DNA of 32,000 nt, from NCBI RefSeq assembly GCF_000025665.1, contig NC_013926.1, positions 1,380,001 through 1,412,000 on the forward strand, read 5' to 3'. Source of the stretch: Aciduliprofundum boonei T469 (GTDB taxonomy: Archaea; Thermoplasmatota; Thermoplasmata; Thermoplasmatales; Aciduliprofundaceae). The notes under the pieces were generated by a model that was not told where the DNA came from, ran no database searches, and saw only the letters and a list, made by a program, of their open reading frames with translations. Made by a program: the position numbers and the translations under genes. How positions within the stretch are numbered: position 1 is the stretch's first letter; each line of letters begins with the position of its first letter. Shown here piece after piece: positions 1,464 to 28,734 of the stretch.

Positions 1464-2177
1464 ATGCTTCATGTAGGCACTTGCGGCTTTCCTGTTGCCC
1501 GAAAGAAATACTCACAGGAATTTAAGGTTGTGGAAATTCAAAAAACATTCTACACCCCAATTAAAGAAGAGACTGCAAAAAGATGGAGAGATGATATGCC
1601 CAGAGATTTTGAATTCACTATGAAAGCACCACAAACTATAACACATCCCACCAGTAGTCCCACATATAGAAGATATAAAGGAAAAAATGGAGATTTTGGA
1701 TTTTTCAAAAATAATGAAGATGTTATGAGTTCCTGGGAACAGGCGAGGAAGATAGGAAAGATTTTGAGAGCCAAGATAATCATATTCCAATCCCCCGCCA
1801 GTTTTAAAGAGGATAAAAACAATATAAAAAATATTTACAATTTTTTCAATAGCATAGAAAGAGATTTTATTTTCGGATGGGAGCCAAGGGGTAAATGGGG
1901 AGAGGCGAGCATCAAGAAAATATGTAGTGATCTAAATTTGATCCATATAGTTGACCCATTTAAAAATAAAAAACTCTGGGGAGATTTTGGATACTATCGG
2001 TTGCACGGTATTGGAGGATACAAATACATATACTCACACTCGGATTTGGAATTTTTAATTAAGATAGTTAAAAATGGTGATTATGTTATGTTCAACAATA
2101 CCAATATGTGGGAAGATGCAAAAAAATTCAAACTTCTACTTTCAGAAAAGCAGCTTCATAATGTGCATTATCAATAG
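1464..2177 (+). CDS. DUF72 (UPF0759, YecE-like) family protein
   Basis: The N-terminus MLHVGTCGFPV...FKVVEIQKTFYTPIKEETAKRWRDDMPRDFEFTMKAPQTITH matches the DUF72 pattern (GTsGW...vEin.tFY...W...tp.dF.F.vK....iTH). I prefer the ATG at 1464 over the listed start at 1395, which would overlap the upstream gene and add a non-conserved leader. Confidence 0.8.
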   Translation: MLHVGTCGFPVARKKYSQEFKVVEIQKTFYTPIKEETAKRWRDDMPRDFEFTMKAPQTITHPTSSPTYRRYKGKNGDFGFFKNNEDVMSSWEQARKIGKILRAKIIIFQSPASFKEDKNNIKNIYNFFNSIERDFIFGWEPRGKWGEASIKKICSDLNLIHIVDPFKNKKLWGDFGYYRLHGIGGYKYIYSHSDLEFLIKIVKNGDYVMFNNTNMWEDAKKFKLLLSEKQLHNVHYQ

Positions 2178-3780
2178 CCAATATTACCGTACTTCCTCCA
2201 ACGACAAAATGTAAAATTGCACTGCTATTTTCATCTATAACTATAGAATTATCCTTCACAGACACCGTGGAAGAAACTACGGCAAAATACTCGTTATTCA
2301 AACTCATGAACTTTACGACTCGGGGCATTCCGCTATTCTCTATAGTTACATTGAAAGAATATTTATTGATCTCATCTGGAACGAACTTCAAAGTGTTGCT
2401 CTCATTTAAGCAAAGTACATCCATATCCACTTCTTTACCATATCCAGTCTTTGTTATCAGGGAAACTTTCAACTGAAAATTGCCCTTTTCTTTCATACCT
2501 ATGGTCACATTTGCACTCCAGTTCCCACCTGGCTCTACCAAAAAGTTAAATTCCATCTTAGATATATTGAAATCTCCATTTATTAGAACAGTTGTGTTCT
2601 CCTTCATCTCACCTTTATTTTGAACAAATATGTGAAGAGTGGTATACTCACTTAAATTCTCAACCAATATACTAGAATCTAAGGATGCAGATAATTCCAT
2701 ATTCTCATGGAGAGTTACCATTTGCATAGGTATGGGCACAAATGTTACTGCCAACAAAAGAAATCCTGAAATGGCAAGAGCCCATCTTTTCTTATCCAAC
2801 TTGGTTATATCATTCAACGGTGGAGGATGATTCAAGCCCAAGAAAACAACCAAAATTGCAAATATAATCCAACCAGGATACCAAAATCCAAGAATGAATA
2901 GAATACCTGCAAACGCATAGCTCACATACTTAGTTTTATCACCTGCAATAGCTCTGGCGACATGCCCACCATCCAGTTGTCCTATAGGAAAGAGATTAAT
3001 TGCCGTAACTACAAATCCGACCCATCCAGCCATGGCCATAGGATGTATGAATTCGGGAGAAGGTATGAATAGAGATAAGAACTCATAGATAATCGGCACA
3101 TTTAGAAGTATATACTGATTTGTGGATTCAGGGTTTATTGCAGGTGGATTTAGGCCTCCCAGATACATTCCTAGAAGAGTTACTGGTATTGCTACTATAA
3201 ATCCTGCAATAGGTCCAGCAAGGCCTATATCTACCAACGACCTCTTATCTGGTATCGGCTCTCTTATAGATATAAAAGCGCCCAAAGTACCGAGAATAGT
3301 AGGGGCAGGTATGAAAAACGGTAAAGACACAGATACATTATGTTTTTTAGCAGCAAAGTAATGGCCCATCTCGTGCACGCCAAGAATTGTCATTAATGGC
3401 AATGCAAAATAGAGAAAGCCACCAAGAACATTCTGCCACAATCCATGAGAACCGTAATAAGTAGTGTAATACCCAATCCCGACCCAAATAGTTGAGGCAA
3501 GGGTAGCAATTAATAATGCAATGTTAACCCATACACTCATAAACTTTCTGCGAGGAGGGCGAATCACAACAAGCACATACTCTCCACCCTCTCTCCTCAC
3601 TATTGGAATTACACCTCTTTTCTTAAACTCCAATCTTAAAGATTCGAAATTTTTTCCAAAGAGCTCCTCATCTCCAAGAGTGAAATAGAATTCCAAATGA
3701 TCAGGTGTGATTCTAAAATCGTAAACATTCAGATATTTTCGCACCAGGTAATTTATCTCCTCTATTTCAGGATTGATCAT
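2128..3780 (-). CDS. Site-2 protease family zinc metalloprotease (peptidase M50) with a C-terminal beta-rich ectodomain
   Basis: HExxH is present (HEMGHYFAAKKH), as is the second S2P motif NLFPIGQLDGGH, within a multi-TM core. The last ~190 aa are non-membrane, beta-rich and rich in N-x-S/T sequons. The ATG overlaps the alaS stop codon (ATGA at 3777-3780). Confidence 0.85.
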   Translation of the reverse strand: MINPEIEEINYLVRKYLNVYDFRITPDHLEFYFTLGDEELFGKNFESLRLEFKKRGVIPIVRREGGEYVLVVIRPPRRKFMSVWVNIALLIATLASTIWVGIGYYTTYYGSHGLWQNVLGGFLYFALPLMTILGVHEMGHYFAAKKHNVSVSLPFFIPAPTILGTLGAFISIREPIPDKRSLVDIGLAGPIAGFIVAIPVTLLGMYLGGLNPPAINPESTNQYILLNVPIIYEFLSLFIPSPEFIHPMAMAGWVGFVVTAINLFPIGQLDGGHVARAIAGDKTKYVSYAFAGILFILGFWYPGWIIFAILVVFLGLNHPPPLNDITKLDKKRWALAISGFLLLAVTFVPIPMQMVTLHENMELSASLDSSILVENLSEYTTLHIFVQNKGEMKENTTVLINGDFNISKMEFNFLVEPGGNWSANVTIGMKEKGNFQLKVSLITKTGYGKEVDMDVLCLNESNTLKFVPDEINKYSFNVTIENSGMPRVVKFMSLNNEYFAVVSSTVSVKDNSIVIDENSSAILHFVVGGSTVILAIDNAHYEAAFLKVEV

Positions 3781-6425
3781 GCTAACCCCAGCAATTTCCT
3801 AGCGGTATTTAATGCTTCCTCAATCCTATCTTTATTCCCTTTTCCCTGCGCAAAACTCTCTTTACCTCCAGCTTTTCCATGCATAACTCTTGCAATTTCC
3901 AATGCAATTCTCTTTGCCTCTAGACCAAAAGCCACAAAACTTCCATCTTCCCCTATAAGTACTCCCCTTTCAACACTAGACATAAGTTCTCTAGCAAGAA
4001 TAGAGAGAGCTTTCATATCCAAGGGCAACATTTCTGCAACAGCTTTTTGTGATGCTAGTTCCTTTTTTATGCTTTCCATCCGAGATCTTTTGAGTTTCTC
4101 TATTATCTTCCTCTGCTCTTTCCATTCATCGAAAAATCTTTTAGCTGCCAAAGGCAATTTCTCAGGTTGCACACCAAGCACACTGGCACTGTTATTGAGG
4201 ATATCTTCTCGTTCTTGAGTGTATTCTAAAGCACTTAATCCGGATGTATAAATTATCCTACTCACTCCATCTTGAATCCTCTCCGTACGAAGAATTTTTA
4301 AAAATCCAATCTCGCCAGTGTTGTTCACATGCGTACCCCCGCATGCCTCCACATCGAAATCTCCAATACGCACAACCCTTATCTCTTTCCCCGGCGGGAT
4401 ACCTCCTTCGTAGAGTACAAATCCATGCTTTTTCTCAGCCTCCGTCCTATTCATAAATTTGGCATCCACAGGTACACAGGAGGTTATTATACGCATACCC
4501 TCTTCCTCAATTCTCTTTATCTCCTCTCTACCTATTGGCTTATAATGAGCTATGTCAAATCTGCATTCTTTTACATCCTTCTGAGTGCCATGCTGCCATA
4601 CATGCTTCCCAAGAACCCTACGACATGCAGCTAAAAGTACATGTTCAGCTGTGTGATTTCTCATTAGCCTTTCTCTTCTTTCCCAATCAAGTATTCCCTT
4701 AATTTTGCATCCTTTTTCAATATGCCCATCTTTCAGAAAATGAACCACCACATCTCCAAATTTCTGAACATCTACAACCTCGTATTCTCTCCCATCGCAT
4801 ATTATCTTTCCCCTGTCTGCTGGTTGACCTCCACCTTCTGGATAAAATGCCGTTGCATCTAATACAACTTCCCTGCCATTAGAATATACAACATTCGCTT
4901 CAAATTCTCTCAAATATGGATTCTCATAATACAATTTCCTTGTTGGAGGCAGATTATATTGCTTTTTCTCTTTCTTCTTTTTTCTTGCCACACTTTCATG
5001 TCTCTTTGCTACCAATCCATGGAAGTTATCTGGAATATCCACTCTAATTCCCATACTCTCAGCAACATTTGCAACAATCTCTGGAAGAAGTCCATGGGAA
5101 TCGTAAAACAAAATAAGGTCATCGGTAGTTATTTTTCCATTTTTCTTTATATGCCTCTTAACAATATCCATACCCTTGCTTAGCGTTTTTCTGTACCTCT
5201 CCTCTTCAATCTCAAGTTCTTCGAGTACTATTGAAAGCATAGAAGAATCCATTATATCTGAAAAACGCTCAATATGCATTTTCACAAGCTCACCTATCAT
5301 TACAGGATTTTTCAGATCGTCTAAAAGCTTCAAAGTTCTCCTTATCAGCAATCTTGCAAGATAGCCAGCTTGAACATTAGAAGGTACAATGCCATCGGTG
5401 AGCATAAAAGCTAAGCTTCTTGTGTAATCCACAACTGCATAGATTTTCTGTAGAGGCAAAATAAATTCTTTGTACTCTTTCATACTCGCCCTCGTAGCCT
5501 TCAGAACTTCATTTATGAGCTCGTTTTCGTTCTCAATCTCAATGCGTGGGGACAACAATGCAAATTGCCTTAAAATCTCATTTTTTCTATCATTTCTTGA
5601 GATTCCAATTCTATCTTCGAGCATGCTTATCATTTCTGGATATATGGCATCGTAAATCGTAGGGGTACCTTTGGAGGCCCATACGAATCTCTCCAAGCCG
5701 TATCCAGTATCCACAACTTTCACTGGCATCTCCGAATAGCGAGTACCATTCAACTCTATATCTCCATTATCATCCTCTTTCAGGTTCATAAATACAAGCG
5801 TGGCTAGCTCCAATCCACCGTATATGACCTCAAAACTCGCCCCAGCATTGCCCCCACCTATCCATGGCTTTTCCTTAAAAACCACATTATCTGGCTCTCC
5901 GCCCAATTCTTCGATAAGTTTCAACGCATACTCCACAGTTTCATCTTTCCAGTAAATAGGGTTATCGGGATAGTTAAAAGCATGATGAGCCATCATCTCA
6001 AAGCCCGTTAGATGCCTCCCTGTCTTGCCTACAGAATCCACATCCACCATCCTTATGCATGGCTGTGAAATTACGAGGGGATTTGCAGGAGGAGGTGCGA
6101 GACCTGAGGTTACATGAGGCTGAAAATCATAAATGGATGCATTTACAAGGAAGACATCATCTCTCCATCTGGCAACTACAGGATACCTCTTTATTTCCTC
6201 ATGCCCATTTCTTTTGAAAAATTCAATAAAGCTTCTGCGCATACTCTCCACTGTGAATTCTCTACTAAATATCGGCTCTTTTAAAAACTCATACTCTCCG
6301 CAGGGTGCCTCTGTGCATGTCTCTCTTGGCACCTTGCTCCAAAAATATACCCCACATTTTTTGCATTTATATCTCTTCCAGCCATTTTTATGAAAGAACT
6401 GCAAATTCAACTCTTTTTCAAGCAT
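3777..6425 (-). CDS. alaS: Alanine--tRNA ligase, archaeal type
   Basis: 882 aa. The N-terminus FFHKNGWKRYKCKKCGVYFWS with Zn-ribbon-like cysteines is typical of archaeal AlaRS. The editing domain HxxxH/CxxxH region is present (HTAEHVL ... CGGTHV), and the C-terminal DHHA1-like tail has GGKESFAQGKG. Confidence 0.97.
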   Translation of the reverse strand: MLEKELNLQFFHKNGWKRYKCKKCGVYFWSKVPRETCTEAPCGEYEFLKEPIFSREFTVESMRRSFIEFFKRNGHEEIKRYPVVARWRDDVFLVNASIYDFQPHVTSGLAPPPANPLVISQPCIRMVDVDSVGKTGRHLTGFEMMAHHAFNYPDNPIYWKDETVEYALKLIEELGGEPDNVVFKEKPWIGGGNAGASFEVIYGGLELATLVFMNLKEDDNGDIELNGTRYSEMPVKVVDTGYGLERFVWASKGTPTIYDAIYPEMISMLEDRIGISRNDRKNEILRQFALLSPRIEIENENELINEVLKATRASMKEYKEFILPLQKIYAVVDYTRSLAFMLTDGIVPSNVQAGYLARLLIRRTLKLLDDLKNPVMIGELVKMHIERFSDIMDSSMLSIVLEELEIEEERYRKTLSKGMDIVKRHIKKNGKITTDDLILFYDSHGLLPEIVANVAESMGIRVDIPDNFHGLVAKRHESVARKKKKEKKQYNLPPTRKLYYENPYLREFEANVVYSNGREVVLDATAFYPEGGGQPADRGKIICDGREYEVVDVQKFGDVVVHFLKDGHIEKGCKIKGILDWERRERLMRNHTAEHVLLAACRRVLGKHVWQHGTQKDVKECRFDIAHYKPIGREEIKRIEEEGMRIITSCVPVDAKFMNRTEAEKKHGFVLYEGGIPPGKEIRVVRIGDFDVEACGGTHVNNTGEIGFLKILRTERIQDGVSRIIYTSGLSALEYTQEREDILNNSASVLGVQPEKLPLAAKRFFDEWKEQRKIIEKLKRSRMESIKKELASQKAVAEMLPLDMKALSILARELMSSVERGVLIGEDGSFVAFGLEAKRIALEIARVMHGKAGGKESFAQGKGNKDRIEEALNTARKLLGLA

Positions 6426-6445
6426 AGATTTGGCTAATATCCCAA

Positions 6446-6460
6446 CATATTAAAATTTAT
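6446..6460 (-). promoter_or_regulatory. Candidate TATA box for alaS (minus-strand ATAAATTTTAATATG), overlapping the pyrC stop codon
   Basis: The element is centred about 25 nt upstream of the alaS ATG (6425). The 31-nt pyrC-alaS gap holds no Shine-Dalgarno sequence, which suggests a leaderless transcript. Confidence 0.35.
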
Positions 6461-7656
6461 TCCCCTCCAATTCTCACAAACTTGCCAGTTCTCTCACCCA
6501 CGAGCTCATAATTCTCCACAACGGTTTCTCCTCCCACAATGACTGTATGAGGAAATAGAGCATTAAAGCCCTCATATGGAGTCCAGCCACATTTGTAATG
6601 CAGATCCTTAGCCCTTATTTTTTTAATATCATTTAAATTAAATGCAATTAAATCTGCATCATAGCCCTCTTCGATTTTACCCTTTTTCACACCTACAAGC
6701 TCGGCAGGCCTTTGCATCAAAATCTCAACTGCCCTGCTCAAATGGAGTTTTCCAATTTTTACCATATACATGAATATTGGCACATAGGTTTCCACCTCAG
6801 GTATTCCGGCAGGTGCTGCGAAGAACTCTTGCTCTTTTTCCTCTATTGTGTGAGGAGCATGGTCACTGGCAACTATATCTATCCTTCCATTTATCAGTTC
6901 TTCCCACAGTTTTTCAGCCATCCACTTCGCTCTTAATGGAGGATTTACCTTTCCGTAGGTACCAAGAGGCATATCTCTATGCAAGAAAAGATGATGCGGA
7001 GTTACTTCATATGTAAATCTACCAGCTTTGCAAAGATCAATGGTGTCTATGGAAGATACATGTGCGATGTGGTAATTACCTTTGCCCAACAACATTTTAA
7101 CTGCTTTAACCTCACAACTTTCTGGCCGAGCCAAATCGTGGTCCCTTAAATTTTTGCTCTCCCTTCTTATGCACTCGCTCAATTCTGCATGCACCGAGAT
7201 AAATGCATTTTCCACACTTTTAATCTCTCCCCCTTCCACATTAGTTGTCTCTCCCATATACAGCTTAAATGCAGGATTCACCTCCTTAAGGATCTCTGCA
7301 TTATTCCCGAGCATAAAATAAAGGGAGAAATCGACATTTGCCTTAGGCGCTACCCTTCTTAACTTATCTTGAAATGATGATATATCCTTTACAGGAGGAT
7401 TAGTGTTTGGCATATCCATAATAAAGGTTACTCCTCCAAAAGCCGCGCTTAATGTGCCTGTATAAAAATCTTCCTTCTCCTCATATCCCGGCTCACGGAA
7501 ATGAACATGCAAGTCAATAGCTCCCGGAAGAATTAGCCCTTTTATTTCCTTAGTCCCAATCATACTTTTTTTTATTCTCTTTATTTTACCATCCTCTATC
7601 TCAATTGCCCCTTCGACTATATCGCCCTTGTAATAGAATTTACCTTCTATTCTCAA
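6457..7656 (-). CDS. pyrC: Dihydroorotase (cyclic amidohydrolase family)
   Basis: Metal-binding motifs are present: DLHVHFREPG, KLYMGETT, HAE, HIAHVSS, VTPHHLFL and ASDHAPH. Length is 399 aa. Confidence 0.85.
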   Translation of the reverse strand: MRIEGKFYYKGDIVEGAIEIEDGKIKRIKKSMIGTKEIKGLILPGAIDLHVHFREPGYEEKEDFYTGTLSAAFGGVTFIMDMPNTNPPVKDISSFQDKLRRVAPKANVDFSLYFMLGNNAEILKEVNPAFKLYMGETTNVEGGEIKSVENAFISVHAELSECIRRESKNLRDHDLARPESCEVKAVKMLLGKGNYHIAHVSSIDTIDLCKAGRFTYEVTPHHLFLHRDMPLGTYGKVNPPLRAKWMAEKLWEELINGRIDIVASDHAPHTIEEKEQEFFAAPAGIPEVETYVPIFMYMVKIGKLHLSRAVEILMQRPAELVGVKKGKIEEGYDADLIAFNLNDIKKIRAKDLHYKCGWTPYEGFNALFPHTVIVGGETVVENYELVGERTGKFVRIGGE

Positions 7657-8251
7657 TTTTCTTCCTCCTTACATTGCCCCTGGGCTTTTCCTCTTCAAAT
7701 ATTTCGGCGGAGAACGCATAAATTCTAACATTTTCGTCAAGCCAGCAATCCATTGGTAATCCAGCTTTCCAACAAGTTTGAGATAAAAATTCTTCCACAT
7801 TCCATCCCCATTCCACTGGCACCTGAGGCAATAGGAGACCCTTGTAGAAGCCCCTTTCAACTATTAAGCCATGCACTCCTATCTTTATAATATTCAACAA
7901 CTCTTTCTTCTTTTTCACTTTTAACTCTTCCGGAGGGGTTAGCAAGGACACTTCAAACACAACATTATCAATCTCTCTCTTTTGCAGAGGTGGAAAACGG
8001 GGGTCTTGAAACGCTGCAGCCAAGGCAGATTCTACCAAGGCCTTTTTCAAAGGATATACTGGCTCTGGATATCCTATGCATCCCCTCAGATCATGCTCTG
8101 GATATGTGGAAATTGTCGTAAAAACCCCACTTTTTTCTTCAAAACTCTTTGGAAACTCTATAGGTGGTACTTTTTTCCCATCTAAATAATCCTCCACCAC
8201 TTTTCTCGCAGTCTTAACGGCGAATATACCTTCCTCATCACTATATCTCAT
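7640..8251 (-). CDS. AMMECR1 domain protein
   Basis: The conserved AMMECR1 core is present (GVFTTISTYPEHDLRGCIGYPEPVYPL ... AAFQDPRFPPL ... VEVSLLTPPE ... HGLIVERGFYKGLLLPQV). I prefer the ATG at 8251 (MRYSDEEG...). The listed longer start at 8311 would overlap queE by 59 nt. Confidence 0.85.
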   Translation of the reverse strand: MRYSDEEGIFAVKTARKVVEDYLDGKKVPPIEFPKSFEEKSGVFTTISTYPEHDLRGCIGYPEPVYPLKKALVESALAAAFQDPRFPPLQKREIDNVVFEVSLLTPPEELKVKKKKELLNIIKIGVHGLIVERGFYKGLLLPQVPVEWGWNVEEFLSQTCWKAGLPMDCWLDENVRIYAFSAEIFEEEKPRGNVRRKKIENRR

Positions 8252-8252
8252 C

Positions 8253-8882
8253 TCACACACCCCTTTTGTTTCCCCATATAATTTTATGCAGTTGAGGCAA
8301 CACACGTACATTTAACTTCTCTTCAACAACCTTCTCAGCCAACCATTTCAGATTTGTACTTCCAACCGGTTGAAATATTATTTCTTTATCAATTTCATAC
8401 TTCTCAATTATCTTCTTTGCGTATTCAAAATCATTCTCATCCATTATCACAAATTTCACAAAATCTTTAGGTCCGAGATAATTTAAATTTTCAAAGCGCA
8501 TTGCCCTTTCCATCTTTGATGACGGGGTTTTTATATCTAGAGAGATAACAAGATTTTCTTCAGTGGGCAATTTGTCTATTAAAATGGAACCATTTGTCTC
8601 CACTAAGATTTTATAATCTTTACGCAAGAGAATGTCAATTAACTTATAAACCTCCTCTTGAAGCAATGGCTCTCCGCCAGTAATGCAGACCCACTTCATT
8701 CCACTCTCTTCAACCTTTTTGATTATAGAATCTATGCTCATTTCTTCTCCCTCGTAAAATGCGTACTCTGTATCGCACCATTCGCATCTCAAATTACATC
8801 CTGTGAGGCGAACAAAGAACATGGGCACTCCTATGTATATGCCCTCTCCTTGTATTGATGTAAACATCTCATTAACTTTCAT
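8253..8882 (-). CDS. queE: 7-carboxy-7-deazaguanine synthase (radical SAM), archaeosine/queuosine precursor pathway
   Basis: The N-terminus EMFTSIQGEGIYIGVPMFFVRLTGCNLRCEWCDTEYAF is the QueE hallmark, including the CxxxCxxC cluster. Length is 209 aa. Confidence 0.9.
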   Translation of the reverse strand: MKVNEMFTSIQGEGIYIGVPMFFVRLTGCNLRCEWCDTEYAFYEGEEMSIDSIIKKVEESGMKWVCITGGEPLLQEEVYKLIDILLRKDYKILVETNGSILIDKLPTEENLVISLDIKTPSSKMERAMRFENLNYLGPKDFVKFVIMDENDFEYAKKIIEKYEIDKEIIFQPVGSTNLKWLAEKVVEEKLNVRVLPQLHKIIWGNKRGV

Positions 8883-8925
8883 CTCTATGCAATATTATCA
8901 ATTGCTTAAAGTTTTTTCCATATCC

Positions 8926-8937
8926 ATTAAATATTCA
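8926..8937 (+). promoter_or_regulatory. Candidate TATA box (CATTAAATATTC) for the 8955-11300 cassette
   Basis: This is the only TATA-like element at the right distance in the 72-nt divergent gap. Its centre is about 24 nt upstream of the GTG at 8955. Confidence 0.3.
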
Positions 8938-8954
8938 AATTTCATTAAAGGTAT

Positions 8955-9374
8955 GTGAAGTATGTAACATTCGTGTCCAAGGATATTTGGCCCGCCATTA
9001 ACTCATTCTGGGCTTATATAAAATTGAAGAGAAATTATCCTAAAAACATAGTAATTCTATGCTCCTACCTCAAAGCAGGCGAGCTTCTTGATAAGAAAAT
9101 AAGAATAATTTATGAAATTCTCAATAAAGAAGTATCAATAAAAACTCTAAAAATCGATGAAAATGTAGAAGGTGTGAAAAATGTAATTAGGGATATGGTG
9201 GAAAACGGAGATGTAATAGACATAACTGGAGCTAGGAAGAGCATGATTTTAGCCTTAATGCACCTGAGCAATGTGAAGATAGTGTACTTGCATTTGAGAG
9301 ATATGAGATTCTCAGAGCGTGCATTTTTGATGCGCCCCTTAGCCCTTCAAGATCTAATGGAGGTGCAGATATGA
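8955..9374 (+). CDS. Small hypothetical protein with a CARF-like (Rossmann-type ligand-sensor) signature
   Basis: 139 aa with a GTG start. A hydrophobic beta-1 is followed by polar residues (YVTFVSKD). The sequence D89-I-T-G-A-R-K95 (nt 9219-9239) fits the published CARF signature [DN]x[ST]xxx[RK]. The alternating beta/alpha pattern is Rossmann-like. No effector domain is present. The assignment rests on motifs only. Confidence 0.4.
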   Translation: MKYVTFVSKDIWPAINSFWAYIKLKRNYPKNIVILCSYLKAGELLDKKIRIIYEILNKEVSIKTLKIDENVEGVKNVIRDMVENGDVIDITGARKSMILALMHLSNVKIVYLHLRDMRFSERAFLMRPLALQDLMEVQI

Positions 9375-10381
9375 TAATCAGCAAAGATGAGCTCTTTGTA
9401 CTTCTTAACGAGTATTATTTGGACGGCCACGCTGAGATAACTGTAAGTTATCCATTCTATAATCTCCGTCTCTTCACCCTGAACCTTGAAAATTTCAAAA
9501 TAGAGAATATAATAGAAGAAAGGGAATTCTATCCATTTAAGAAAAAATTTACTGGATTCCTAAGAAGAGATATGCCAGATTATAGGGATTTAATCGATTC
9601 TTTTGTATCCTCCGGTATTGTTGATTTTGAGAATCAAGAAGAGATAGATGAGAATTTTGAGCTATTGAAAAAGGCAATTGCTGATAAAACCATTTATATA
9701 AAACCTATATTTTTAGGAATTGATACAAATATAGCATACTATCGCATAGTTTCAAGAAGATTGAAAGATGAGTTCAAGTATGTGGTAAGCCAAATTGTGG
9801 TAGATGAGATAGATGCCAGAATTCATACAAAATATTCATGGAAAATACTTCGTGCTCTTGATAATCTTCCATATCACGAACTTGTAAGTGAGTTTGCAAA
9901 TGGGAGTTCTAAAGAGGCAAGAAAAGCAAAAAATGCCATGAACGAGGTAAACTTTCTATTTGATGAACTAGATGCTTTTAGAGCGGGAGAGAGTACAGAA
10001 ACAAGAGATAAGGAGATAAGAGATAGGGAGATAGCGTTACAGTACAGCAATTTTGCCAAAGAGGTAGATGCAGAGATAGTAATTTTAACAGCTGATAAAG
10101 ATATGAGTTTTCACGCACAGGCACATGGTATCAGTTCCGTATATTTCAAATTGCCACATAAGATTTATCCTATGAAAATAGATCCTATGCGCATTCCATA
10201 TCTACTTTATGATTTAACAGTTAACTTTGGAACTATTAAAATAAACGATACAATAATCTTATCTGAATGGCGTGGAAAGGATGTGGAAAATTATCTAAAT
10301 GAGGACTTAAAGATTTACAATATGAATGACAAATTGGCGAAGGATATAAAAATATGCAGGAGGCTCAAAGATGAATTATAG
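9371..10381 (+). CDS. PIN-domain nuclease with uncharacterised N-terminal (~110 aa) and C-terminal (~75 aa) regions
   Basis: The PIN acidic quartet appears in the expected order: IFLGID118TN, VVDE146ID, RD213KEI/RD218REI, and ILTAD242KD244 followed by GISSVY. The ATG overlaps the upstream stop (ATGA at 9371-9374). Confidence 0.65.
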   Translation: MIISKDELFVLLNEYYLDGHAEITVSYPFYNLRLFTLNLENFKIENIIEEREFYPFKKKFTGFLRRDMPDYRDLIDSFVSSGIVDFENQEEIDENFELLKKAIADKTIYIKPIFLGIDTNIAYYRIVSRRLKDEFKYVVSQIVVDEIDARIHTKYSWKILRALDNLPYHELVSEFANGSSKEARKAKNAMNEVNFLFDELDAFRAGESTETRDKEIRDREIALQYSNFAKEVDAEIVILTADKDMSFHAQAHGISSVYFKLPHKIYPMKIDPMRIPYLLYDLTVNFGTIKINDTIILSEWRGKDVENYLNEDLKIYNMNDKLAKDIKICRRLKDEL

Positions 10382-11300
10382 AGAGATAAGAGCCAGATTA
10401 ATTGCCTCTTACGGAGATTTCGTATTCTTTCCATCTGATCCAGAGGTGTTCAAGATAATAAGCACAAAGGCATTCACACATCTTGTTTTGAGGGAAGATA
10501 TAACAGTATACGCTCAGAAGGCAATGGAAGAGGAGTTAGAAAATGAACTTCAGGAGAATTATGAAGTTATATACGAAACTCCAAAGCTGGAAGGAGAGTA
10601 CTTCGTTAGTCCTTACACAAATATAGTAAACATAGATTTCAAATTCAAAAATGGGCTGGAAATTTTGAAGAAAGCATTGAGAAAACCCTTTGATGAGGAA
10701 ATTGAAATAATTGAAGATTTAAGTGATAAAATAAACAAAGCTCTTGCAGAGTTCTGGAACGAGATAAGTATCGGTATGAAGGAGAGCGAAGCTAGAGCAA
10801 TTTTAGATTGCAAGCTTATTAAAGAGGGAATTGAAGGATTTACTTATCCTACCATAATTGTGAGTGGAGATAGAAGCAAGTATTTACTTCCCAAGAGTTC
10901 TGAGAATAAAATTGAGAAAGGGAAGATAATTTATGTTGATTCCTCGCCCCAAATAAACGGATACCATTTAAACTTCTCAAGAGTAATATTTACAGAGGAA
11001 AGAATAGAGTGGGTAGAGGTTCTGGAGAAAATAAATAAAATGTACTCGGGTTTATCCTCCATGATTATCCCTGGAGCCAATTGCAATTTTTTAGATGAGC
11101 AAATAAGAAAAATTGGAAATTTTCCCCATTACAGCATCATACCCTCGGGAGGGTTCTACATGCCCTATGCACCCGGCGACTGTGTAATTGAAGAAAACAT
11201 GGTTATGACAATAGTACCATCAATATACTTGGATGACGGTGTTATAAGGGTAAAGAGAAATGTTGTTGTGAAAAAAGAGAAACCTATATTTTTGGTTTAG
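10371..11300 (+). CDS. M24 (creatinase/prolidase, pita-bread fold) homolog, probably catalytically inactive
   Basis: The M24-like C-terminal half is present (TYPTIIVSGDRS, GKIIYVDSSPQINGYHLNFSRVIFT, NMVMTIVPSIY, GVIRVKRNVVV). At the canonical ligand positions I read D, N, no GHGxG His, V and K, so only 1 of the 5 ligands is retained. It overlaps the PIN gene by 11 nt. Confidence 0.6.
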   Translation: MNYREIRARLIASYGDFVFFPSDPEVFKIISTKAFTHLVLREDITVYAQKAMEEELENELQENYEVIYETPKLEGEYFVSPYTNIVNIDFKFKNGLEILKKALRKPFDEEIEIIEDLSDKINKALAEFWNEISIGMKESEARAILDCKLIKEGIEGFTYPTIIVSGDRSKYLLPKSSENKIEKGKIIYVDSSPQINGYHLNFSRVIFTEERIEWVEVLEKINKMYSGLSSMIIPGANCNFLDEQIRKIGNFPHYSIIPSGGFYMPYAPGDCVIEENMVMTIVPSIYLDDGVIRVKRNVVVKKEKPIFLV

Positions 11301-12717
11301 GCTTCTTTATTATCTTCTTTTTCCAATCCCCTTTGAAATAGAATATTCCTCCAATACCCGCAGAAACCATATTTGATATGGCCATGGCAAACCACACTCC
11401 AATTGCGTCCATCCCCATTATTAATGCAAAGTATATTGCAAGGGGAATGCGAAGTAGCCAAAGCCTTGCTGTACTGAGGATCATGCCTTGGAATGTATGC
11501 CCAGAGCCCGTTAATAGAGAGCTCTCCACTCTAAACAATCCAAAATAAGGTATACCAATAAGCACGATCGATAAAAATGTTTTAGCTCCTTGGATAACTT
11601 CAGGGTTATTGGGAATGAAGAATCTCACAATGGGATCTCGGAAAATATAGATTAATCCAGAAGCGGCAAGTAGCATATAGAACATGAGAAACATACCTTT
11701 CTGAGCAATTTCAACGCTTCTCTTTATATCATCTGCCCCTAAAGCTTGGCCCAACATTATTGTAAGAGATGCAGCCAGACCGTTAACGATTACAAACATC
11801 ATATTTACGATTCTATTACCCACACCGTAAGAAGCTATAGCTAGTACCTGATCAGGAAGTTGGGCAAGAATGCTTTGGATGATCACAAATCCAAATGCCA
11901 TAGCACTCATACTAGCACTTGAAGGCAAACCGACCCTAAGGATGAACTTGACGCTCTCCCACCTGGGCTTGAAATCTTTCCACTTTGGTTTCAATCTCAA
12001 TTTTCCCCTTAGAAGTAAATAAAGAAGCCATATAGCTGCTATCACTCTTGCAATGACGGTGGCTGTAGCAGCCCCAAAGACACCCATTTTGGGAAATCCA
12101 AATAATCCAAATATCAGAATAGGGTCCAGAATCATATTTATAAGAACGGAAACAGAGCTTATTATTAGTGGAGTAACAGTATCTCCTTCTGCAGATATAA
12201 CAGATCCTCCCCCCATTACTACGAACATAAATGGTAATCCAAGGAATATTATTGAGCCGTATGTGGCGGCAGTTTCTAAAAGCTCTCCCTTTGCGCCTAT
12301 GAGTTCAAAAATTGGATATGCAAAAATAAAGCCAAAAGTAGCCATTATAGAAGAAATTATGAGAACTACACTAAAAATCTGGCCCGTGTAGTGATTTGCC
12401 TTCTCCTTATCACCTGCACCAATATACTGCGAAATTATAGGAATGCCACCTCTTCCAAGGCCCCCTGCAAAGGAAATGAAAAAGAATATAACGGGCCAGG
12501 TAAAATTTATGGCAGCAACCGCTATTCTTGCCTCTTCTGTAGGAAGCCTCCCAAGCCAGAACATATCTGTTAAATTATAAAGTGTCTGAAGTAGGCTACT
12601 TACCATCATAGGCCAGCCTAAAAGAAACATAGTTTTAATTACCCCTCCATTCAAAATTTCCTCTCTACTCAACCTTAAAGATCGCCTTTTACTCTGATTT
12701 TCCGGGTGGGTTACCAC
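11284..12717 (-). CDS. MATE family efflux transporter
   Basis: 477 aa with about 12 hydrophobic helices. The N-terminal region is typical of MATE proteins (GVIKTMFLLGWPMMVSSLLQTLYNLTDMFWLGRL). The start is GTG. The 3' end overlaps the convergent M24-like gene by 17 nt. Confidence 0.88.
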   Translation of the reverse strand: MVTHPENQSKRRSLRLSREEILNGGVIKTMFLLGWPMMVSSLLQTLYNLTDMFWLGRLPTEEARIAVAAINFTWPVIFFFISFAGGLGRGGIPIISQYIGAGDKEKANHYTGQIFSVVLIISSIMATFGFIFAYPIFELIGAKGELLETAATYGSIIFLGLPFMFVVMGGGSVISAEGDTVTPLIISSVSVLINMILDPILIFGLFGFPKMGVFGAATATVIARVIAAIWLLYLLLRGKLRLKPKWKDFKPRWESVKFILRVGLPSSASMSAMAFGFVIIQSILAQLPDQVLAIASYGVGNRIVNMMFVIVNGLAASLTIMLGQALGADDIKRSVEIAQKGMFLMFYMLLAASGLIYIFRDPIVRFFIPNNPEVIQGAKTFLSIVLIGIPYFGLFRVESSLLTGSGHTFQGMILSTARLWLLRIPLAIYFALIMGMDAIGVWFAMAISNMVSAGIGGIFYFKGDWKKKIIKKPKPKI

Positions 12718-12735
12718 ATTCCCTTAAAAATCTAT

Positions 12736-12748
12736 AACATATTTTAAG
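12736..12748 (-). promoter_or_regulatory. Candidate TATA box for the MATE gene (minus-strand CTTAAAATATGTT)
   Basis: It is centred about 25 nt upstream of the GTG at 12717, in the 49-nt gap after the radical-SAM gene. Confidence 0.3.
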
Positions 12749-12766
12749 TTTTGTATGAGTATGCAA

Positions 12767-13777
12767 TTAAACTACCATATTTATCTTCTTCCCGCACCTA
12801 TTGCATCTTCCATCCTTTGTTAATCCCTTCAGCTCTGTATTGTAATAAACTCTCTCAATTAGTAAATTGCCACAGTTTGGGCAGTATGTACTCTCGTACT
12901 CTGGCTCCCATGTGTTGCCCAAATAAACATATTCTAAACCAACTTCCTTGGCTATTTTGTAAGCATTATGCATAGTTTTTAAAGGAGTGGGTGGTTTATC
13001 AGTTAGTTTGTACATGGGAAAAAATCTTGAAAAATGTACGGGAATTTCAGGGCTCAGTTCATAAACCCATTCTGCAAATTTTCTTATTTCTTTCGAGTCA
13101 TCATTTAAGTCGGGGATTATAAGATAGGTCAATTCAATATGTATTCCCATCCTGTATGCCCTCTCAACAGTATCTATTACAGGCTGCAATCTTGCTCCTG
13201 CTATTTTCCTATAAAATTCATCTCTAAAGGCCTTAACATCTATGTTCATAGCATCCAAGTATTGTCCTATTTCTCTAAGGGGCTCTTCGTTGATGTAGCC
13301 ATTTGTAACATAAACCGTGTATAAACCTTCTTTTTTTGCCATCTTTGAGACATCTAATGTAAACTCATGCCATATTGTCGGCTCATTATAGGTCCACGCA
13401 ACACCCTCGTAATTCCCAGCAATTTTCATAACTTCATCAGGACTCATCTCCCTCAAATATGGAAACTCCATACCTGCCTGGCTTATTTCCCAATTTTGAC
13501 AATGTTTACAGCGCATATTGCAGCCCACAGTAGATAAAGAGAGAACCTCTGATTTTGGTTTAAAGTGAAAAAGTGGCTTTTTCTCAATAGGGTCAACGGC
13601 AATTGATGATACAGAACCATAATTCAAAGTGTATAATTTACCCCCAATATTCTTTCTAACCCTGCAAACTCCAATTTGCCCCTCTTTGAGCACACATCTA
13701 TAGGGGCATAACTCGCATCTAACCTTATTATCTTCAAGCTTTGTCCAATGCTTTGCTAAAGTGAGCATATCCCTCAC
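12767..13777 (-). CDS. AmmeMemoRadiSam system radical SAM enzyme (PFL-activase-like)
   Basis: The N-terminal cysteines are present (VRCELCPYRCVLKEGQIGVCRVR), as is the radical SAM cluster GCNMRCKHCQNWEIS. The C-terminal Zn ribbon is CPNCGNLL...CNRCGKKI. Confidence 0.85.
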   Translation of the reverse strand: MRDMLTLAKHWTKLEDNKVRCELCPYRCVLKEGQIGVCRVRKNIGGKLYTLNYGSVSSIAVDPIEKKPLFHFKPKSEVLSLSTVGCNMRCKHCQNWEISQAGMEFPYLREMSPDEVMKIAGNYEGVAWTYNEPTIWHEFTLDVSKMAKKEGLYTVYVTNGYINEEPLREIGQYLDAMNIDVKAFRDEFYRKIAGARLQPVIDTVERAYRMGIHIELTYLIIPDLNDDSKEIRKFAEWVYELSPEIPVHFSRFFPMYKLTDKPPTPLKTMHNAYKIAKEVGLEYVYLGNTWEPEYESTYCPNCGNLLIERVYYNTELKGLTKDGRCNRCGKKINMVV

Positions 13778-14642
13778 CCTTTATCTTATTTCCATCTTTC
13801 CATATTCCAATTTCCTCATCCACAACACCTATCTCCTTGCCAAAAATTTTTTTAGGAGAAGTATAAACGAGCTCATACTCTCCACCGAACCCTGTGGCTA
13901 AGTACTCTAAGGGAATGTCATAATCCTCTGAAACTTCATATGCAAGCTTGTGAATGGGTAAAGAATTAAAATCAATATCCAAGCCATAATTTGCGTTTCT
14001 CATAAAAACCACTGCAGAAGCGAGGCCATCGGATAGGTCCATACAAGCCCTTGCAATTTTTGATATTTCCCTCCCTTCTCTTATGCGCGGATAGACATCC
14101 AAAATGTAATCTGCTCCTTCTTCAATTCCATTTTTCCAAAGAAAATAACCAGCAGCTTGCTTTCCAAGTTCTCCAGTGATATAAACGCCCTCTCCTTTAT
14201 TTATGGCATTTCTTAGCATAATCCTCTCTTTCTCAACCTTTCCAATGGCTATTCCAGAGAACCCAATTATGCGGGATTCTTTTAAATCTCCTCCTTTATA
14301 TGGCACATTGAAATCATTTAGAATTTCAAGCATCCCCTTCATAAAATCTTCCAAAAATCCTAAATCCATTCTTTTGGGAAAGAACATAGAAGCCATGAAA
14401 ATCTCTGGCTCCCCTCCCATAGCGGCTATATCACTCAGATTAATTGTGGCAAAGAATCTCCCAATTTTTCGTGCATTCCAATTATCCATAAAGTGAGTGC
14501 CTTCTCCTACAAAATCTGTAGTAATGAGTTGGTAATAGTTACCCCTATCTAAATAAACGCAATCATCGTAATTTTCTTTCTTACCCACAATTTCCCATAT
14601 TCTGTCGATTACTTCTCTCTCACCCAAGGAGCTAAGGTTCAT
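13734..14642 (-). CDS. thiL: Thiamine-monophosphate kinase (PurM/AIR-synthase-like superfamily)
   Basis: The N-terminus LGEREVIDRI, DDCVYL and ITTDFVGEGTHF match ThiL motifs (DDaA.l, ttD.lvegvHF). Length is 302 aa. The 3' end overlaps the start of the downstream radical-SAM gene by 35-44 nt. Confidence 0.8.
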   Translation of the reverse strand: MNLSSLGEREVIDRIWEIVGKKENYDDCVYLDRGNYYQLITTDFVGEGTHFMDNWNARKIGRFFATINLSDIAAMGGEPEIFMASMFFPKRMDLGFLEDFMKGMLEILNDFNVPYKGGDLKESRIIGFSGIAIGKVEKERIMLRNAINKGEGVYITGELGKQAAGYFLWKNGIEEGADYILDVYPRIREGREISKIARACMDLSDGLASAVVFMRNANYGLDIDFNSLPIHKLAYEVSEDYDIPLEYLATGFGGEYELVYTSPKKIFGKEIGVVDEEIGIWKDGNKIKGEGYAHFSKALDKA

Positions 14643-14718: not shown

Positions 14719-15174
14719 GTGGATTGTATAAAAGTTCATACTGTAAAAGATTCGCGTTTGGATGGCCTTAAACTTGAGGATTTCCTAGATAATTTTGAGG
14801 GAGAGACCCTTTACATACTTGACATTAATTCTTATAATAGAAGGGAGATGAACCTGAAAATTTACGATGAGCTTTCAGGGCTTTTTGAGCTCTGGATTGA
14901 TGCAGCCCCTAGAAGACACTACGATGTCATGGACATTCTTGTGATAGGCGGAAATAAGGCGATAATTGATTCTAATTTCATAAAATACAGGGAAATAGAG
15001 AAAATTTTAGAACTAACTGATAATGTTATGCTCAAATCCTACGATAGGGAGAGATTAGAAAATTTTATAATGCTTGGAGGGAGAGAGGTTATAACTTCAA
15101 AGAAACTTGCAGATTATATTGATGCAAAAACATACATAATGAAGGGAGGTGAGTTGTGCCTATGGAAAAATTAA
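14719..15174 (+). CDS. Hypothetical protein, weakly HisA/HisF-related (half-barrel-like)
   Basis: 151 aa with a GTG start. The pattern LYILDINSYNRRE...ELWIDAAPRRHYDVMDILVIGGNKAIIDSN resembles the lyvvDLdg...dgGir...Ga..vv.gT repeat of HisA/HisF-related archaeal proteins. This is weak, motif-level evidence only. Confidence 0.3.
   Translation: MDCIKVHTVKDSRLDGLKLEDFLDNFEGETLYILDINSYNRREMNLKIYDELSGLFELWIDAAPRRHYDVMDILVIGGNKAIIDSNFIKYREIEKILELTDNVMLKSYDRERLENFIMLGGREVITSKKLADYIDAKTYIMKGGELCLWKN
15145..15150 (+). promoter_or_regulatory. Shine-Dalgarno GGAGGT for the 15156 gene
   Basis: A perfect GGAGGT lies 5 nt upstream of the GTG at 15156, inside the 3' end of the upstream gene. Confidence 0.5.
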
Positions 15175-15626
15175 AGCAGATAATTGCATATGTGGTTAAA
15201 AAAAGAGGAAGAAAATTGAGGGAGGAGGATTTTGTTAATGTCTTATCCTATGATAGAAAATGGATTCCTCCCGCATCTTCCCGTGCTCTGTTTAAAGTCA
15301 TACTAGATGCAAATCTTCTTCAAAAAAATGGAGAGTACTATGAACCAAATTTTGAAATTAAAGGACTCGTGCTTCCATTAGATTTCAGTGTTAGTGATGA
15401 AGATGTAAACAAGTACTTCAAAAAAGAGGATGTTTTAACAAGGATAATCGATTATTTAACTGAAAAAATGGATAGAGAAAGAAGAGATATATTGATGGAT
15501 ATAAACTCAATAAAAAATGAGATGAGATTCATAACAATTGAGGTGGCAGCCCTTATCTATTGCAAGGAAAATAATGTGGATTGCTCACAGTTTTACAATG
15601 ATGTGGAAGAGAAGATAAAATCATAA
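15156..15626 (+). CDS. Conserved archaeal hypothetical protein, DUF2240-like
   Basis: 156 aa. The segment LSYDRKWIPPASSRALFKVILDANLLQKNGEYYEPNFEIKGLVLPLDF matches my recollection of the DUF2240 pattern (W.sP..A..l...A...gLl......l.p.Fd.....iP..F). An alternative ATG start is at 15162. Confidence 0.45.
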   Translation: MPMEKLKQIIAYVVKKRGRKLREEDFVNVLSYDRKWIPPASSRALFKVILDANLLQKNGEYYEPNFEIKGLVLPLDFSVSDEDVNKYFKKEDVLTRIIDYLTEKMDRERRDILMDINSIKNEMRFITIEVAALIYCKENNVDCSQFYNDVEEKIKS

Positions 15627-18245: not shown

Positions 18246-18278
18246 ATACATTCCATATGTTCTAAATTGATACCCTTT

Positions 18279-18284
18279 GGAGGT
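18279..18284 (+). promoter_or_regulatory. Shine-Dalgarno GGAGGT for the sedolisin gene
   Basis: A perfect GGAGGT lies 7 nt upstream of the ATG at 18292. This supports that ATG over the listed TTG at 18277. Confidence 0.6.
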
Positions 18285-18291
18285 AATATTT

Positions 18292-28662: not shown

Positions 28663-28734
28663 GGGCAGGTGGCAGAGAGGTTATGCGCGGGACTGCAGAT
28701 CCCGTTTACTCGGGTTCGAATCCCGACCTGCCCT
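28663..28734 (+). tRNA. tRNA-Cys: tRNA-Cys (anticodon GCA)
   Basis: I folded the cloverleaf by hand. The acceptor stem is GGGCAGG/CCTGCCC. The D arm is GCAG-AGAGGTT-ATGC with a 13:22 G-A pair. The anticodon stem is CGGGA/TCCCG with loop CT-GCA-GA. The variable loop is 5 nt. The T arm is TCGGG-TTCGAAT-CCCGA. The discriminator is U73, which is the CysRS identity element. There is no encoded CCA and no intron. Confidence 0.88.

Follow-up and report, generated by a model that had tools for sequence, protein, structure and literature searches.

A split CARF–PIN gene pair in Aciduliprofundum boonei as a candidate ligand-gated RNase of the CARF_m1/Crf6 family, with a pseudo-M24 gene appended

CARF sensors have been studied almost wholly as receivers of the cyclic oligoadenylates made by Cas10. 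The category CARF_m1, in which a CARF domain is combined with a PIN domain, reportedly comes from the CARF classification of Makarova et al. 2020. In the 2025 CRISPR-Cas classification CARF_m1 was renamed Crf6; the family is described there as CARF+PIN and typically not CRISPR-associated, and its members are annotated as sensor, effector and ring nuclease. Our literature search found no experimental study of any CARF_m1/Crf6 member. A CARF-PIN protein of Sulfolobus islandicus, SiRe_0806, has been solved in its apo form (PDB 9jxw) and with the cyclic oligoadenylate cA4 (PDB 9jxx), and a literature search for SiRe_0806 or 9JXW returned no paper. Crn1 (Sso2081, Sis0455; Crf7/CARF7) is a stand-alone CARF protein whose motif I, G-T-S, holds the catalytic serine and whose C-terminal helical insert holds Tyr133; in Sso2081, Arg105 is essential for cA4 binding, Lys106 stabilizes the cleavage intermediate and the exchange Ser11Ala severely reduces cleavage (PMC10018336). 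In this work we have investigated a 32-kb stretch of DNA from Aciduliprofundum boonei T469, which belongs to the DHVE2 group of Thermoplasmatota. This whole stretch is called the window below, and coordinates are counted within it. Specifically, we were interested in three overlapping open reading frames (ORFs) on its plus strand: ORF1, a CARF protein, ORF2, a PIN nuclease which is 99% identical to the named protein ABOONEI_615, and ORF3, a protein with an M24 peptidase domain (Table 1). The original prediction, made from the sequence alone, had taken them for a likely sensor, an effector and a dead-peptidase partner that together might form a system not yet described. The best explanation in our view, and one which we hold to be on balance probable, is that ORF1 and ORF2 make up a ligand-gated two-subunit PIN RNase of the CARF_m1/Crf6 family, vertically inherited and independent of CRISPR, to which the M24-like protein would be an accessory.

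This explanation draws on the way in which the two proteins share a single profile. The profiles of PADLOC-DB are named after the published CARF classification, and the one for CARF_m1--CARF_PIN (PDLC01973) has 465 positions: residues 2–135 of ORF1 cover positions 3–146 (E 3e-11) and residues 2–322 of ORF2 cover positions 171–460 (E 6e-30). Both proteins scored far more poorly against CARF_m3 and the remaining CARF families. The CARF and PIN domains which CARF_m1 has on one polypeptide are encoded in A. boonei by two ORFs with a 4-nt overlap. PADLOC also holds a profile for the stand-alone form, CARF_m1--CARF, which ORF1 matches with residues 2–136 (E 6e-12; the PADLOC CARF profiles have no curated cutoff). 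Since this profile exists, split members are already counted in the family, and the split arrangement as such has no novelty. A profile search with ORF2, run exhaustively, yielded 303 representative proteins (clustered at 50%), mostly of 330–375 aa and matched over their full length. Five of these 303 are fused forms of 485–531 aa with a full ORF1-like domain in front of a full ORF2-like region, and in a search restricted to these sequences their extra N-terminal 150–175 residues matched the whole ORF1 profile with E values of 1e-8 to 1e-16. In loci taken from species genomes and metagenomes, an ORF1-like gene stood directly upstream of the ORF2-like gene wherever the flank was present. Ninety-eight related loci could be classified, 16 as fused and 82 as split; the overlap is exactly 4 nt in 42 of the 82 split pairs, and the genes of the remaining pairs, with few exceptions, either overlap or are no more than 13 nt apart. 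The idea of a split CARF-PIN protein is thus well founded, as both ORFs are collinear on one fused profile and fused relatives exist. The claim that the system had not been described cannot be upheld, because CARF+PIN is catalogued as CARF_m1/Crf6 and a stand-alone CARF_m1 profile is known.

Pfam returned only noise for ORF1, with no match to a CARF family, and gave only sub-threshold CARF matches (Csa3_N, Cas_APE2256, CARF_Card1, Cas_NE0113, HFX_2341_N) for diverse ORF1-like partners. ORF1 is a genuine CARF fold. A profile built from 17 ORF1 homologues and searched against the PDB matched Crn1/Sso2081 (E 9e-6), SiRe_0806 (9jxw, E 1.4e-3) and Card1 (E 1.9e-3), and also Sis0455. With the AlphaFold2 model of ORF1 (pLDDT 88.7), the first 13 Foldseek matches in the PDB (E <= 0.001) were all CARF proteins, namely Sso2081, SiRe_0806, Card1, Sis0455 and Cdn1, and Csa3, Cad1, Can1 and Can2 followed among the lower matches. 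The best superposition was obtained on SiRe_0806 with cA4 (TM-score 0.78, root-mean-square deviation 2.7 Å). The CARF-like signature seen at first is therefore borne out by profiles as well as by structure, and with CARF proteins as all its top fold matches ORF1 does not fall outside the CARF or Rossmann-like folds. In the CARF superfamily motif II (D-x-T-x-G-R/K-K) follows strand 4 and binds the phosphates of the ligand. Motif II of ORF1 reads D89-I-T-G-A-R94-K95 and is invariant in the DHVE2 clade; R94 and K95 align with Arg105 and Lys106 of Sso2081. Across 92 sequences of the family of ORF1 K95 is conserved at 100%, R94 at 90%, W12 at 98% and N16 at 100%, and the DHVE2 sensor keeps W12, N16 and K95, the core residues of the pocket. 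Motif I departs from the G-x-S/T that follows strand 1 in the CARF superfamily: it is S8-K9-D10 in ORF1 and S/T-[K/R]-[D/E] in all 19 DHVE2 sequences, which have G-A-R-K as motif II. The fused and the metagenomic split forms have G-R-S as motif I and G-G-R-K, S-G-R-K or P-G-R-K as motif II, and these G-R-S and G-R-K-type motifs are similar to those of the ring nuclease Sso2081, G-T-S and G-R-K. To judge from the aligned motifs, several lines of Thermoplasmatota seem to be moving away from the Crn1-like pattern in their sensor pocket, and the motif-I change in DHVE2 probably either abolishes ring-nuclease chemistry or alters the choice of ligand.

Could ORF1 be chiefly a ring nuclease, a Crn1-like off-switch that breaks down a cyclic nucleotide and not an allosteric subunit, next to a PIN protein that works independently? 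Its best matches among solved structures and in NCBIfam are to Crn1, stand-alone CARF proteins are often ring nucleases, the annotation of Crf6 includes this activity and the wider family has motifs of the ring-nuclease type. However, the NCBIfam Crn1 match reaches 26.1 bits, below the curated cutoff of 125, and ORF1, about 40 residues shorter than Sso2081, may miss the C-terminal helical insert of Crn1. In DHVE2 the serine of motif I has given way to Asp or Glu and the Gly before it to Ser, whereas Sso2081 loses most of its cleavage when this serine is exchanged in Ser11Ala (PMC10018336). In addition, the fusion to PIN in 16 loci and the tight coupling elsewhere argue for one unit, and we consider it quite unlikely that ORF1 serves mainly as a ring nuclease.

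ORF2 is matched by Pfam PIN_4 above the cutoff (31.3 bits, cutoff 21.9, E 2.8e-7). Its structural model (pLDDT 89.6) consists of three parts (Table 1), and SiRe_0806 alone was a significant match of this model among PDB folds (E 1.3e-6, with the next best at E 0.025). The PIN acids D118, E146, D218 and D242 are conserved at 99–100% in 82 sequences. ORF2 thus looks like an active PIN nuclease with a complete predicted active site, which agrees with the long PIN nuclease originally proposed. The universal housekeeping PIN proteins Nob1 and Fcf1 were rejected as an identity for ORF2, which has no Pfam match to them and whose family comprises only the 303 representatives mentioned above; the concern that the PIN protein might be part of a universally conserved RNA-processing family can be set aside. 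At two of the related loci the PIN gene is broken into two ORFs (Table 1), which could be due to a frameshift, a sequencing error or a decaying copy.

How widely is the pair distributed? In DHVE2, including Aciduliprofundum, members of the ORF2 family are 54–82% identical to the window protein, and in other Thermoplasmata and a metagenome-assembled genome (MAG) of Methanomassiliicoccaceae the identity is 26–30%. The family is also present in at least one Odinarchaeia MAG; the taxonomy of the distant homologues was obtained by cluster look-up, which gave few names, one of Odinarchaeia and several of Thermoplasmatota. A convergent MATE gene always follows the trio in the DHVE2 loci, and the upstream side is variable: Aciduliprofundum has QueE-like and AMMECR1 genes there, other members of the clade a gene for a tyrosine recombinase of about 285 aa. 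Downstream of the pair in other Thermoplasmata come genes read by their sequence as cysteinyl-tRNA synthetase, the alpha subunit of phenylalanyl-tRNA synthetase and dCTP deaminase. In 25 related loci, both fused and split, a metallo-beta-lactamase/RMMBL gene of about 500 aa is found upstream on the same strand, usually as the direct neighbour or within two genes, and this beta-CASP-like gene is often preceded by a SurE gene. The closest NCBIfam model of its product is the RNase J family, with a score of 81 bits that lies well below the cutoff of 400. The association of the beta-CASP-like gene with CARF-PIN may represent a functional link between two RNases. A QueE-like radical-SAM gene is divergent to the trio in A. 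boonei, and an unrelated, TIP49-carrying clade has another on the downstream side of the pair, a few genes away; this recurrence may be due to chance or may point to a connection with tRNA modification.

The window contains housekeeping genes only and no cas genes, and no cas gene occurs among the annotated recurrent neighbours across more than 100 related loci, as the original prediction had said of the surroundings of the trio. A census of the 86 largest neighbour proteins listed no cas family among its 25 top families, although each cluster entered it with a single representative and only the 25 top families of each library were displayed, so that it excludes a recurrent association while single cas cases could escape it. 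The census also gave single-locus matches to models of BrxL, DrmD, TmtA and methyltransferases. Defence-system models are matched in isolated, not recurrent cases: TmtA and MkoA by a protein of 1967 aa close to the pair at one locus, and BrxL, BrxH, DrmA, DrmD and type II methyltransferases by single other neighbours.

Is it possible that the pair is nevertheless an ancillary effector of a type III CRISPR system, placed away from cas genes, in which Cas10 makes cA4 during infection, ORF1 binds it and the PIN protein degrades RNA non-specifically in an abortive response? Both halves are closest to SiRe_0806, which was crystallized with cA4, ORF1 has retained the Arg and Lys which in Crn1 bind cA4, and CARF+PIN proteins are listed in the literature among the components of cyclic-oligoadenylate pathways. 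However, Crf6 is described as typically not CRISPR-associated, the window has no cas genes and the recurrent neighbours annotated above include none, and the DHVE2 clade has a diverged motif I. Type III systems are patchy in their distribution, whereas this locus shows synteny and seemingly vertical inheritance in DHVE2 as well as in other Thermoplasmata. Three described Methanomassiliicoccales genomes have only type I-C, hybrid I-A/I-B or 'PreFran' subtype systems (PMC4153887), which bears on the question indirectly, the MAG of that family in which we found the pair being another one. Taken together, a role as a CRISPR effector appears improbable to us.

A PIN nuclease in a group of small, overlapping and co-transcribed genes also invites comparison with toxin-antitoxin units, in which the PIN protein would be the toxin and ORF1 and/or the M24-like protein the antidote, PIN domains being the commonest type II toxins. 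The VapC toxins have about 130–150 aa; ORF2, with 336 aa and two extra domains, is unlike them, and the protein encoded upstream has a CARF fold and not the fold of a DNA-binding antitoxin. In every related genome or metagenome locus examined the pair lies among housekeeping genes. A scan of viral contigs found no relative of the pair, and the PADLOC matches are to CARF profiles only. The features of VapBC, a small single-domain PIN protein, a DNA-binding antitoxin and scattered multiple copies, were not found in ORF1–ORF2. A VapBC-type unit was rejected on account of the size and three domains of the PIN protein, the CARF fold and the syntenic housekeeping locus, and we see hardly any chance that the trio is toxin-antitoxin-like. 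The context, a syntenic locus with housekeeping flanks, no viral-contig match and no cas gene among the annotated recurrent neighbours, accordingly speaks against a mobile defence island and against the toxin-antitoxin unit that had been suggested early on.

The third protein, ORF3, is matched by Pfam Peptidase_M24 over residues 118–301 (74.4 bits, cutoff 23, E 1.4e-20) and is nearer to prolidase and aminopeptidase P than to methionine aminopeptidase. The metal ligands D209, D220, H284, E313 and E327 of the Pyrococcus furiosus prolidase (1pv9) correspond to D190, N201, P258, V282 and K295 of ORF3. Four of the five are therefore lost and the first Asp is left, with identical substitutions across 21 family members. 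Many other positions are invariant, and the family is strongly conserved. The invariant residues include R204, H253, Y254, Y263, E274 and K295. Its edge is sharp, as all 38 matches have at least 54% identity, and these homologues come from the same DHVE2-type genomes as the close homologues of ORF2. At each of the 19 loci of the DHVE2 clade where both genes were detected, ORF3 begins before ORF2 has ended. No PADLOC profile matched ORF3. By its alignment ORF3 is a putative pseudo-peptidase, conserved and specific to DHVE2, in line with the degenerate M24 protein predicted at the outset. What points to its functional membership in the system is solely the conserved overlap with ORF2 and the translational coupling that this suggests. 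The expectation that the three genes would be conserved as neighbours holds for ORF1 and ORF2, which are paired in 82 related loci, and for ORF3 within DHVE2 only; since ORF3 is present only in DHVE2, the conserved unit is a pair of genes and not a trio.

We hypothesize that ORF1 and ORF2 are the two halves of a CARF_m1 CARF+PIN protein, made as separate, translationally coupled polypeptides. They would assemble, probably into a 2:2 complex resembling the homodimer of the fused protein, and a small nucleotide ligand at the interface of the CARF dimer would turn the activity of the PIN RNase on or off. A cyclic oligoadenylate made by Cas10 is probably not the signal, given that the family lacks a link to CRISPR and that its inheritance looks vertical. 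By analogy with SiRe_0806 and Crn1, the obvious candidate for the ligand would be cA4; the missing CRISPR link of the family, the housekeeping synteny and the repeated pairing with an RNase J-like gene point instead to an endogenous nucleotide or RNA-end signal, perhaps of RNA turnover or stress. In DHVE2, motif I would have changed from G-R-S to S-[K/R]-[D/E], with loss of ring-nuclease chemistry or a different choice of ligand. Here ORF3 would be co-translated as a lineage-specific accessory, our guess being a non-catalytic adaptor or regulator; this step is the weakest one. A wider reading, in which the pair senses an endogenous nucleotide or damaged RNA ends and acts together with the RNase J-like beta-CASP protein, and in which the dead peptidase is a third subunit in DHVE2 with a rewired motif I, is put forward as a speculation that we think rather unlikely to hold as a whole.

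Several points, besides the reach of the neighbour census, weigh against the two-subunit RNase with its accessory. ORF1 scores 44 bits against the PADLOC CARF_m1 profile, compared with 189 bits for a metagenomic split member. The altered motif I places an acidic residue by the phosphate-binding loop, and ligand binding could have been lost altogether. In a subgroup of Thermoplasmata MAGs (L026-L031) motif I is G-D-E and the Arg of motif II is lost (DITGGTK/DITGGSK), with the invariant Lys, Trp and Asn kept. A physical interaction between ORF1 and ORF2 is suggested by the fusions and the coupling of the genes. By analogy with the closest solved relative, SiRe_0806, which binds cA4, activation in trans by a cyclic oligoadenylate would be conceivable. 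Finally, the pair was always without ORF3 in the loci examined outside DHVE2. In one clade a HAD-family hydrolase gene of about 250 aa lies directly 3' of the PIN gene on the same strand, in the slot which the pseudo-M24 gene occupies in DHVE2. With ORF3 missing outside DHVE2 and a HAD gene in its slot elsewhere, ORF3 may be an operon passenger.

Is ORF3, then, a diverged enzyme or binding protein of the M24 fold, capable for example of metal-independent hydrolysis, which does not belong to the system and shares its operon in DHVE2? Metal-free M24 enzymes exist, creatinase being one of them. The many invariant residues of ORF3 suggest a conserved pocket, and beyond DHVE2 the downstream slot holds a HAD hydrolase or nothing. 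On the other hand, the overlap with ORF2 is kept in 19 of 19 DHVE2 loci even though the upstream context varies, the homologues sit in the same DHVE2-type genomes as the close ORF2 homologues, and the arrival of ORF3 coincides with the change of motif I in ORF1. We therefore treat a place for ORF3 outside the system as a serious possibility, if somewhat short of an even chance. Should ORF3 be a passenger, the finding would reduce to a divergent member of a known family.

With the two-subunit RNase as the preferred explanation, the locus offers a test case for CARF sensing outside immunity: the strain has a name and a completed genome, its sensor and nuclease are separable proteins and its housekeeping context is stable. 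The recurrent RNase J-like link suggests a role in RNA turnover, and the pseudo-peptidase and the change in motif I could together illustrate the way in which a further regulator is acquired by a ligand-gated nuclease. As far as we know, the DHVE2 variant, with its coupled and conserved pseudo-M24 gene and its rewired motif I, is new; the beta-CASP neighbourhood in related lineages may be new as well.

The anatomy of the locus agreed with what had been predicted. The ORF list and the sequence gave the same three ORFs, coordinates and ATGA and 11-nt overlaps (Table 1), and from the gene annotation the trio is the sole plus-strand unit in a run of minus-strand genes from 2128 to 14642, the remaining plus-strand ORFs of this run sitting within minus-strand genes. 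The flanks are likewise those named at first: upstream lie genes for an M50 peptidase, alanyl-tRNA synthetase, an amidohydrolase, AMMECR1 and the QueE-like radical-SAM protein, and downstream those for a MATE transporter, a second radical-SAM protein and an AIRS-domain protein. The divergent gap between the QueE-like gene and ORF1 is 72 nt long and contains TTAAATAT, which may be an archaeal TATA box, and if this box is real the transcript would be leaderless. A scan for bacterial signals (sigma-70-type promoters, terminators) found no terminators, its models being suited to bacteria and the host being an archaeon. Scans with Rfam and for tRNAs gave no match within the trio region. The impression that the trio is richer in AT than its neighbours is weakly true, as its GC content is 0.347 compared with 0.387 for the window, yet this is only about one standard deviation low (gene mean 0.382, standard deviation 0.033), and stretches just as AT-rich are present elsewhere. 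Its GC content at third codon positions (0.41, 0.30 and 0.37) is ordinary, within the range of 0.30–0.42 of the other genes. A foreign origin by base composition was rejected on these values.

Some further features of the window were recorded. In its longest form the AMMECR1 ORF overlaps the QueE-like gene, starting 59 nt within it, and its AMMECR1 domain extends only from residue 32 onwards. Translation probably begins instead at an internal Met, residue 21 (MRYSDEE), in which case the two genes would no longer overlap. Downstream, an overlapping plus-strand pair encodes a 151-aa protein without a Pfam match and then a DUF2240 protein, and the pair is kept at the same position in Aciduliprofundum sp. 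MAR08-339 (L001). A protein of 1383 aa has pro-kumamolisin activation, CARDB, Ig-like, MAM-like and carboxypeptidase-regulatory-like domains. It is probably a protease of the sedolisin type, large and either secreted or located at the cell surface, which fits the peptide-fermenting lifestyle of the organism. The only RNA family match of the window is a tRNA-Cys gene.

Table 1. Features of the three-gene locus, of the window and of related loci. Positions refer to the window, to residues of the protein (aa) or, where a number with L is given, to a related locus.
Feature	Position	Strand	Description
ORF1	8955-9374	+	GTG start, 139 aa; stand-alone CARF domain, candidate sensor half of split CARF_m1/Crf6
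ORF2	9371-10381	+	336 aa; PIN nuclease, candidate effector half
ORF3	10371-11300	+	309 aa; M24 pita-bread protein without dinuclear metal site
ATGA 4-nt overlap	9371-9374	+	holds ORF1 stop and ORF2 start
11-nt overlap	10371-10381	+	ORF3 ATG at 10371; ORF2 TAG at 10379-10381
Possible archaeal TATA-like box TTAAATAT	8927-8934	+	~25 nt upstream of ORF1 GTG; read from sequence
ORF2 N-terminal alpha/beta domain	~aa 1-105		model
ORF2 PIN core	~aa 110-260		model; D118, E146, D218, D242
ORF2 C-terminal domain	~aa 265-336		model
QueE-like radical-SAM gene	8253-8882	-	divergent to the trio
AMMECR1 gene	7640-8311	-	longest ORF
Overlapping gene pair	14719-15174 / 15156-15626	+	151-aa protein, DUF2240 protein
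1383-aa protein	18277-22428	+	probable sedolisin-type protease
tRNA-Cys (GCA) gene	28663-28734	+
HAD hydrolase (cluster c15)	L057, L061, L062, L065, L069, L070, L071; example L057:9475-10230	same strand as PIN gene
beta-CASP-like (cluster c1)	including L035, L039, L041, L042, L043, L045, L046, L050, L067, L071, L083, L087; example L046:5143-6648
QueE-like (cluster c6)	example L089:7601-8362		TIP49-carrying clade
1967-aa protein	L062:7662-13565	-	TmtA and MkoA model matches
Broken PIN gene	L065:8473-9496		175+159 aa
Broken PIN gene	L051:1429-2377		269+61 aa

How do the three proteins compare with systems already described? Ebp1/PA2G4, Arx1 and the N-terminal domain of Spt16 are non-catalytic pita-bread proteins of the M24 fold, and ORF3, read here by sequence alone, likewise keeps the fold and has lost the metal-binding residues; it differs from them in being closest to prolidase and aminopeptidase P and not to methionine aminopeptidase. 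RtcR, which combines a CARF domain with a sigma-54 activator, offers a precedent for a CARF protein outside CRISPR immunity that is tied to RNA metabolism, its RNA repair operon being regulated by damaged tRNAs (PMC7790460). RtcR is likened to the A. boonei pair by description only; it is bacterial, and its output is the activation of transcription and not a nuclease. Crn1 and ORF1 are both stand-alone CARF proteins, Crn1 structures are top fold matches of ORF1, and the region of motif II is nearly identical (DITGGRKSM in Sso2081, DITGARKSM in ORF1). Unlike Crn1, ORF1 has Asp in place of the motif-I Ser, scores 26 bits where 125 are required and has 139 aa compared with the 178 aa of Sso2081, the alignments ending at about residue 127–130 of the chain; moreover, its family is always paired or fused with a PIN protein. 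SiRe_0806 is the best or nearly the best structural match for both ORF1 and ORF2 and has the same collinear order of domains, but it is a single polypeptide of 429 aa. In sequence it resembles the A. boonei proteins only marginally (CARF half E 1.4e-3, PIN half E 0.12), so that it may belong to another CARF+PIN family, for instance CARF_m3 (Crf10/11). The closest relationship is that to CARF_m1/Crf6 itself, whose CARF_PIN profile ORF1 and ORF2 match from end to end, whose stand-alone profile ORF1 matches and whose described location away from CRISPR-cas the A. boonei locus shares. Within this family A. boonei stands apart by having the two domains on separate proteins, by the divergence of ORF1, with S-K-D as motif I and G-A-R-K as motif II, and by the pseudo-M24 gene which has been appended to the pair.

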